The position numbers and the translations under genes were made by a program. This document shows, piece after piece, positions 13,834 to 14,412 of a stretch of 64,000 bases of DNA. Position 1 is the stretch's first letter, and each line of letters begins with the position of its first letter. The notes below the pieces were generated by a model. That model was given only the letters and a program-made list of their open reading frames with translations. It did no database searches and was not told the origin of the DNA. The stretch is taken from assembly GCA_965153455.1 (NCBI GenBank), contig OZ234493.1, forward strand, positions 30,990,213 to 31,054,212. Direction: 5' to 3'. Source of the stretch: Sphagnum compactum. Its lineage: Eukaryota.

Positions 13834-14412
13834 CTAGAGTGGAAACGCAGTTGAAAAGCTGGAAAATAGACATTCAAGTCTCTCACCAATCATCATCTTG
13901 GCATGCAAATAGATCCTGAAGCGGCGGTTGTAGTGGCTGTTATCTTCTGGGCTCTGTGTAGGCACATATTCACCCTCTGTCTTCGGTTTGGGATTTCCAA
14001 TTTCGGTTGGGATTGTTCCTGTGAAGGAGTTGGAGCTCAGATCCAGATGCTGCAGAGTTGTGATGGAGAAAAGCTTGGGAGCCAGAGTGCCAGAAAGACC
14101 CAGTTGGTGAAGAGTCACTCCTGAGACTTGCCCCAAGCTGTTGCAGGTAATTCTTGTCCAGTGACATGGTCCTTGCATGTCAGGAGCTGCTAGCACCCAA
14201 TCTGGATATGGATCTGCTCCTTGCCATGTAGTTCCTTGCTTGAATGCCCATAATGCTGCTATGTCATTGTCGTCGACCACAGATGCAGCTGCTGCAGTAA
14301 CAACCATGACAACTTGAAGGTGGTTTCTTCTTCCAGCTAGACGGCCTACAAGAAACAGTAGTAGCAGTAGGATCAGCAGCAACTTGATGAAGCTCCATGA
14401 TCTCTGAGCCAT
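13834..14412 (-). CDS. Chimeric ORF: LRR receptor-like N-terminus (signal peptide, LRRNT, ~2 LRRs) fused in frame to a phospholipase D fragment
   Basis: [23 protein letters not shown] (signal peptide), [21 protein letters not shown] (LRRNT), [35 protein letters not shown] (plant LRR), then [35 protein letters not shown] (PLD second HKD region). ORF track start at 14511 is an upstream alternative. Confidence 0.75.
   Translation of the reverse strand: [192 protein letters not shown]

Follow-up and report, generated by a model that had tools for sequence, protein, structure and literature searches.

An in-frame fusion of LRR receptor kinase and phospholipase D fragments inside a non-autonomous Helitron

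The Helitron and its target site

The window, as we call the whole stretch of 64,000 nucleotides analysed here, contains on its minus strand a stop-free reading frame in which the N-terminus of an LRR receptor kinase (LRR-RLK) runs into a piece of a phospholipase D (PLD). The frame lies within an insertion that interrupts one copy of a dispersed repeat, here named repeat A, and an intact copy of this repeat in the same window supplies the empty site. When eight long open reading frames (ORFs) of the window were tested, two proved to be host genes and six had no recognisable family. Elsewhere in the window we noted an uninterrupted 625-aa ORF at 60312-62186 (plus strand) with SRP54_N, SRP54 GTPase and SRP_SPB matches, apparently an SRP54-type gene without introns; a 453-aa ORF of PPR repeats at 49229-50587 (minus strand); and, at 8300-8734, a loose tandem array of five A-rich units of about 54 nt, 61-72% identical and spaced 65-176 nt apart. 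The carrier and the two repeat copies are laid out as follows, with depths taken from X1, a genomic run bearing the same species label.

9419-9738, plus strand: intact repeat A copy of about 320 bp, the empty-site reference, reading ...CTACTA and then TACTCTATAATG across 9683/9684
12958-13222, plus strand: 5' part of the interrupted repeat A copy, 91-92% identical to 9419-9684 and ending with A at 13222
13223-16049, plus strand: non-autonomous Helitron of 2827 bp, with TC at 13223-13224 and CTAG at 16046-16049, between host A 13222 and host T 16050
13223-13404, plus strand: 5' terminal region of the Helitron, common to many members (X1 depth about 6,500 in 13284-13404)
13405-13833, no strand assigned: internal segment without recognisable origin, no protein-family match, X1 depth about 1,000-1,250 over 13405-13646
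15116-15358, no strand assigned: internal segment without recognisable origin, no protein-family match
15359-16049, plus strand: 3' common region of the Helitron, marked in X1 by a joint from 16048 to 15359 and by loose ends at 15359/15360
16050-16105, plus strand: 3' part of the interrupted repeat A copy, delimited by comparison with the intact copy

The interrupted copy reads ...CTACTA, then the insert from TCTATTTATATAATATCC to GGTCACGGGTACCCACTAG, then TACTCTATAATG, with no target-site duplication. The insert begins with TC, ends in CTAG, a form of CTRR, and sits between an A and a T, all of which section 3 of PMC4683698 gives among the defining features of Helitrons. In X1, depth was about 28-57 over the unique flanks and about 120-310 over the LRR fragment, compared with the value listed above for the 5' end and about 32,000 for the 3' end (15825-15945). 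X1 contigs of other copies diverged from the window exactly at 13222/13223 and at 16049-16051, and each of the two termini delimits hundreds of other copies; in other family members a 5' end is joined directly to 15359, the termini being common to copies whose insides differ. No second copy of the element was present within the window, where the only match was one of 71 nt at 45660-45730. The preliminary description had placed the chimera inside a Helitron, and this was borne out by the TC...CTAG ends, the A-T target, the empty site and the high-copy termini. On the basis of termini, target site and copy number we assigned 13223-16049 to the non-autonomous Helitrons; its middle of about 1.95 kb (13405-15358) is captured DNA. 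No RepHel gene was found in the window, and 10 ORFs from the internal segments of the Helitron had no Pfam match (best E 0.11); the element is classed as non-autonomous because it lacks RepHel, which is needed only in autonomous elements.

We considered whether the insertion might be of another type, or an artificial join in the assembly, with TC...CTAG arising by chance. The 3' hairpin is indeed weak: CTAG is preceded at a distance of 5 nt by an 8-nt palindrome (GGGTACCC), and a small stem of GGTTT and AAACC is found about 40 nt upstream, but the canonical G/C-rich hairpin of 15-20 bp located 10-12 bp before the 3' end was not evident, and the fold of 15985-16049 reached only -6.7 kcal/mol (z -0.32 relative to shuffled sequences). 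This explanation could also point to the lack of a nearby RepHel gene and to a flanking inverted pair of about 420 bp that might serve as Pack-MULE-like ends. Against it, the TC, the CTAG and the A-T target without duplication were judged relative to an intact repeat copy, the same termini delimit hundreds of other copies, and the X1 flank contigs (records 1 and 8) were identical to the window, with 0 differences. We therefore regard such an origin as very improbable. A Pack-MULE bounded by 10580-11003 and 17344-17760 was rejected on two grounds: its outer ends lacked a target duplication and had mismatched flanks, and the same repeat of about 420 bp occurs in L001, the locus of a relative described below, so that the two are separate copies of a dispersed repeat. 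The ends of the insert itself are not inverted repeats, and no 9-bp target-site duplication surrounds it.

Several further features of the neighbourhood were recorded. The two copies of the repeat of about 420 bp are inverted, 6.3 kb apart and 91-93% complementary, and the repeat lies at 3444-4057 in L001. One X1 contig linked 16048 to 15359 through 32 nt, and the 5' end (…TATATAATATTTTAGGTG…) was found attached directly to 15359; these arrangements suggest a short basic element of about 0.7 kb, possibly in tandem or head-to-tail copies. Repeat A had a summed X1 depth of about 268,000 relative to about 40 for single-copy DNA and is probably a SINE/MITE-like family. It is transcribed, as 49 polyA reads joined 13181 to 16050; these came from intact copies elsewhere.

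The chimeric reading frame and its parents

The captured gene fragments lie head to tail on the strand opposite to that of the Helitron and comprise the following features.

13834-14511, minus strand: chimeric ORF P0001, antisense to the Helitron, read from the window sequence
13834-13886, minus strand: captured start of the PLD intron (53 nt), with homology ending at ...CCACTCTAG; encodes a read-through peptide of 17 aa and a stop
13887-13985, minus strand: captured PLD exon fragment, residues about 177-208 (KTEGEY...)
13986-13991, minus strand: junction patch of 6 nt, CCAAAC, like neither parent, probably templated filler
13992-14511, minus strand: captured LRR-RLK coding fragment, codons 1-173, with a hydrophobic N-terminus, LRRNT and about 2 LRRs, broken inside parental exon 1
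14512-15115, minus strand: captured LRR-RLK upstream region or 5' UTR, with an RNA contig from a close relative extending over 14489-15042

P0001 is stop-free over 225 aa from its first ATG (14511) and over 192 aa from an internal ATG at 14412; the frame passes a G followed by GTGAGA at 13887/13886 and ends with a stop codon at 13834-13836. Residues 1-173 are the N-terminus of an LRR-RLK. The FLS2 ectodomain (4mn8) matched residues 83-173 over its first 94 positions (domain E 1.1e-14), and the LRR part also aligned with further LRR-RLK ectodomains. The Pfam matches were borderline, at 20.6 bits for LRRNT_2 (cut-off 20.7) and 21.5 bits for LRR_1 (cut-off 20.6), and apart from this cap and single repeat P0001 contained neither a transmembrane segment nor a kinase, the captured part stopping after 173 of the more than 1,400 LRR-RLK codons. 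Residues from about 177 to 208 are an exon piece of a C2-type PLD that ends in HAKMMI, after which 53 nt of PLD intron are read through to the stop. The sole match of the 39-aa exon-side PLD tail among 177,635 distinct PDB sequences was plant PLD alpha1 (6kz8 residues 624-666, E 9.4e-4); Pfam PLDc gave no match on this short piece. Of the two HxKxxxxD motifs of a PLD, P0001 encodes only the H-A-K-M-M-I of the second, that is, the His and the Lys without the Asp. With two LRRs and no transmembrane or kinase part, the predicted product would be expected to have no receptor function. PLD activity would likewise not be expected: the PLD fragment has no Asp, first HKD motif, C2 domain or C-terminal domain, and is thus not an enzyme.

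The parents used for comparison were close relatives or orthologues on metagenome contigs rather than parental loci in the same genome. A protein search with the ORF gave 6 matches at E<=0.001 among 984 candidates, three of them close relatives. Two, P0002 and P0003, were short N-terminal LRR fragments with 87% and 84% identity, respectively; the third, P0004, was a 211-aa JGI fragment named 'phospholipase D1/2' whose C-terminal end is the same intron read-through peptide as in the window. P0002 carries a frameshift past residue 137, and P0003 is unlike the ORF past residue 104; these differently broken copies of the LRR N-terminus in relatives may be other transposon-borne copies. In metagenome DNA we found 23 related loci, none of which aligned with both halves of the ORF. 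Six (L001-L006) aligned only with residues 1-173 or 5-173, at 87-89% amino acid identity, and five (L007-L011) only with residues 171-225 or 171-223, at 76-80%; the remaining 12 were more distant PLDs at 45-53%. By blastn, window positions 13992-15115 matched L001 at 10526-9443 and positions 13834-13985 matched L008 and L010. Ungapped identity to L001 was 96.0% in the coding sequence and 96.5% upstream, and identity to L010 was 96 of 100 positions in the exon bin 13886-13985 and 50 of 51 in the intron bin 13834-13885. L001 is a full-length LRR-RLK; two of its exons encode LRRs and one the Pkinase domain, and none of its later exons is inside the element. L010 is a full-length PLD with C2, PLDc and PLD_C. 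Its exon ends ...ATGATGATTG followed by GTGAGA, with the intron directly after KMMI-G, and the GT at window position 13886 is therefore the parental donor. The next L010 exon begins about 140 nt further on, at L010 position 10271, where ...CAG is followed by TGGATGATGAGTAC and KMMI-VDDEY is completed. As read from L010, the catalytic Asp is encoded in this next parental exon, which the captured piece does not include. Relative to PLD orthologues, the captured piece carries a 15-nt in-frame deletion (KNAQE) and the changes M>R and V>L.

These comparisons agreed with most of what had been proposed from the letters of the window. The stop-free LRR/PLD frame of 192 aa from the Met at 14412 was confirmed by reading the sequence and by the FLS2 and PLD alpha1 matches, and the tail at 13887-13992, for which a PLD match had been sought, had one both in 6kz8 and in L010. 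The intron that the PLD parent was predicted to have after KMMI-G, with its donor at 13886, was found in L010, and the HKD motif had correctly been described as partial, with its Asp missing, as the exon encoding that Asp is absent from the element. The search for parental LRR-RLK and PLD loci led to full-length close relatives, L001 and L010. A native gene with both LRR and PLD parts was encountered neither in the 23 related loci nor among the 120 LRR proteins listed by a search of longer proteins, where 0 had a PLD family and query coverage was at most 61%; the close full-length parent was not recovered by that search. PLD tail residues 170-212 found nothing among longer proteins by shared words, a search limited by its words, as PLD relatives were found by other searches. 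A 76-aa peptide spanning the junction gave 18,309 matches at E<=0.001 among representatives, swamped by multi-repeat LRR proteins and thus uninformative on chimeras elsewhere. In the best 150 of these 18,309 the best stretch fell within query residues 1-37, except for P0142, P0194 and P0195. On inspection, P0142 was a plain LRR protein.

The junction and the spread of the composite

On the minus strand the window reads GGAAATC, then CCAAAC, then CGAAGACAGAGG across the junction. The LRR parent reads GGAAATC followed by TAGTTG..., and the PLD parent reads GGAAACC followed by GGGAGA and CGAAGACAG (in L010, GGGAAA followed by CAAAG). Common to both parents is GGAAA[T/C]C (GGAAAYC), which contains the Gly-Asn codons. 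The two genes had been proposed to be joined at a shared Gly-Asn microhomology (GGA AAT, 13993-13998). The shared sequence exists in both parents as proposed, but the join was not a clean one, as six non-parental bases follow it at 13986-13991; this patch, CCAAAC, matches either parent at no more than 2 of 6 bases. Positions 13995-13982 (AATCCCAAACCGAA) nearly repeat positions 14014-14002 (AATCCCAACCGAA), which lie 19 nt upstream in the LRR fragment, and the patch was probably copied from there as templated filler. Because a 6-nt patch unlike the parents follows the shared GGAAAYC, filler synthesis or template switching would fit the junction better than a clean Gly-Asn microhomology join. On the simplest reading, copying may have jumped backwards at AATC and duplicated about 10 nt before changing over to PLD as template at CGAA(G). 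Alternatively, the pieces may have joined at a plain microhomology of 7 nt, with clustered mutation afterwards.

From this anatomy we infer the following order of events. A Helitron would have acquired two pieces, head to tail and on its opposite strand: a 1,124-bp 5' portion of an LRR-RLK gene (about 600 bp of upstream region or 5' UTR and codons 1-173 of exon 1) and 152 bp of a C2-type PLD (about the last 99 nt of an exon and the first 53 nt of the next intron). As intron sequence is retained, the pieces would have been joined at the DNA level, inside both exons, by a microhomology or filler event such as template switching or end joining during replication or repair of the Helitron. The reading frame would have been kept by chance (1 in 3), giving an ORF of 225 aa with its stop codon in the PLD intron. 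The composite would then have transposed with the Helitron, and the present copy landed between A and T inside a dispersed repeat.

Genomic runs gave information on the copy number and age of the composite. One 151-nt X1 unitig terminated precisely where the LRR homology does, at 13992, as expected where parent and chimera branch. X1 contigs of the LRR region showed about 2% of sites unlike the window; those of the flanks were identical to it. There was no X1 depth in bin 13768-13888, and none of the X1 contigs listed bridged the junction. In X9, a run with a second species label, a 247-nt contig (13662-13907) crossed the distal boundary of the PLD fragment, with a depth about three times that of single-copy sequence, and depth was continuous (208, 237 and 128) over three bins spanning the junction, with no listed record bridging 13986-13992. 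The share of element words per run was 0.49-0.56 in organism A, 0.45-0.46 in B, 0.32 in C and 0.29-0.30 in D. The composite is present in multiple copies, and its origin probably precedes the separation of these species; the junction itself is shown in the window alone.

The outer ends of the captured block, at 13834 (minus strand, after ...TTTCCACTCTAG) and at 15115, touch CTAG-like sequence. The exact point where PLD homology breaks off, CCACTCTAG, is similar to the Helitron 3' end CCCACTAG, and in L001 the captured stretch begins (at about 9440) right after AGCTAG, with GATC following. These block ends could reflect the use of cryptic terminators or of microhomology in capture, or could be due to chance.

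Expression, selection and significance

Transcription was examined in X22, a single polyA RNA-seq library with the same species label, of which 1.8 Gb, about 12% of the run, was read. X22 depth was zero in every bin over 13405-15098 except for 0.46 in 13889-14009, and those X22 reads that were placed matched the repeat and the Helitron ends only partially. Thirty X22 polyA reads skipped 385 nt within 15394-15780, with 8 other letters in between; these reads derive from a shorter, related copy of the element elsewhere and do not reflect splicing here. In the metatranscriptome X15 (share 0.14) the matching contigs were the parental LRR-RLK transcript of a relative, one of them continuing beyond 14005 in sequence unlike the window, and the chimera was absent; we accordingly rejected these contigs as evidence of habitat or of expression of the chimera. 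Another, record 15, covers 14489-15042, so that the captured 'upstream' DNA is for the most part 5' UTR, and since the relative's RNA reaches 15042, at most about 70 bp of true promoter was captured.

Substitutions assigned to the window lineage numbered 14 upstream and 15 in the coding sequence; those in coding sequence comprised 4 synonymous and 11 non-synonymous changes, a ratio that looks about neutral. This ratio does not discriminate, because the parent lineages are likewise relaxed at the LRR N-terminus (synonymous to non-synonymous 3:3 and 2:6, also weakly constrained) and the counts are too small. That neither the 6-nt patch nor the 15-nt deletion breaks the frame could be cited for selection.

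These data bear on the suggestion, made in the preliminary description, that the ORF is a nascent gene or a decoy. A young functional gene would use the captured upstream region of the LRR-RLK for its transcription and would yield a secreted stub of 2 LRRs with a PLD-derived tail, a decoy or modulator of the parental receptor that might be extended by splicing at 13886. The frame is open across the junction, the patch and the deletion, about 600 bp of parental upstream sequence and the hydrophobic N-terminus were retained, and the composite was kept in about 3-5 copies under two species labels, all of which would suit such a gene. It fares badly with the lack of X22 depth over the ORF (a single bin at 0.46, one library), with the 4:11 ratio and a substitution rate in coding sequence equal to that upstream, with the short stretch of promoter, and with the broken state of the other LRR-fragment copies, P0002 and P0003. 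We consider a young gene highly improbable, and the suggestion of a nascent gene or decoy was not upheld, given the near-absence of X22 depth and the about neutral substitutions. Small RNAs, which the preliminary description also suggested, offer a different route to function: read-through or antisense transcription of the Helitron would generate siRNAs that modulate the LRR-RLK and PLD parents epigenetically. The captured fragments are antisense to the Helitron and about 96% identical to the parents' close relatives, and PMC13317346 describes Helitron-borne captured fragments as siRNA reservoirs in maize and Brassica. PolyA depth over the fragments was zero on both strands apart from the one bin at 0.46, however, and the PLD piece is only 152 nt; we regard a role as a small-RNA source as unsupported and unlikely. 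Expression under conditions that were not sampled, either as a secreted mini-LRR peptide acting against the parental receptor or as an antisense or siRNA trigger on both an immune-type receptor kinase and a PLD of lipid signalling, we judge to be quite unlikely; were it true, it would provide one of the rare documented instances in which exon shuffling by a Helitron gave rise to a regulator, here in a bryophyte-like lineage. P0001 is most likely an unexpressed, neutrally drifting pseudo-gene, and we infer that it is without function. We hold with considerable confidence that the whole is explained by capture of LRR-RLK and PLD fragments in a Helitron, in frame by chance, as an inert pseudo-ORF.

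Capture of gene fragments by Helitrons, with formation of chimeric ORFs, is textbook knowledge in plants, and gene-fragment-carrying non-autonomous Helitrons of maize were reportedly described in 2005 by Morgante et al. and by Lai et al. PMC13317346 cites Du et al. 2009 on Helitrons of this kind, and fragment capture with chimeric ORFs or transcripts is treated as established in PMC13317346, PMC4683698, PMC4528327 and PMC4778049; PMC4224331 also deals with capture, chimeric transcripts and siRNA effects in plants. The present element resembles the Helitrons of maize and other plants in being non-autonomous and multi-copy, in its TC...CTAG ends and A-T target, and in holding pieces of unrelated genes, introns included, side by side with a chimeric ORF. 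It differs from them in that the fusion is exon to exon, into one in-frame ORF, rather than by splicing of separate captured exons, in that no transcript was seen in the one polyA library, and in its host, which the labels of the RNA runs and the metagenome relatives suggest to be bryophyte-like. Pack-MULEs and transduplication likewise join several host gene fragments at the DNA level, often with microhomology or filler, and are a frequent source of pseudo-genes, but Pack-MULEs end in inverted repeats and are flanked by target duplications of 9 bp, both of which this insert lacks. Compared with a plant C2-type PLD such as PLD alpha1 (6kz8), the captured piece leads into the second HKD motif and keeps the parental intron position, but amounts to only about 32 residues, without the Asp, first HKD, C2 and C-terminal domain. 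Compared with LRR-RLKs of the FLS2/GSO1 type, it has the hydrophobic leader, the LRRNT cap and about 2 LRRs, in coding DNA 96% identical to that of a full-length relative, but no further LRRs, transmembrane segment or kinase.

The captured-fragment pseudo-gene is real, yet of the ordinary kind that gene capture by Helitrons yields as a by-product; existing knowledge of Helitrons is left unchanged. The direct in-frame fusion of exon to exon, the clean empty site and the identification of the donors are slightly unusual. The locus combines an empty site in the same window, donors identified to the base and a signature of microhomology with templated filler at the junction, and junctions of this kind help to discriminate between models of capture, namely template switching or filler DNA and end read-through. 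It also carries a warning for annotation, as the ORF would be called a fragment of a 'receptor-like protein' or of a 'phospholipase D'. Among the titles and abstracts listed by a literature search on Helitron gene capture in moss, none dealt with that subject, and the present case, if its host is moss-like as the run labels suggest, adds to the thin record of Helitron capture outside the angiosperms.
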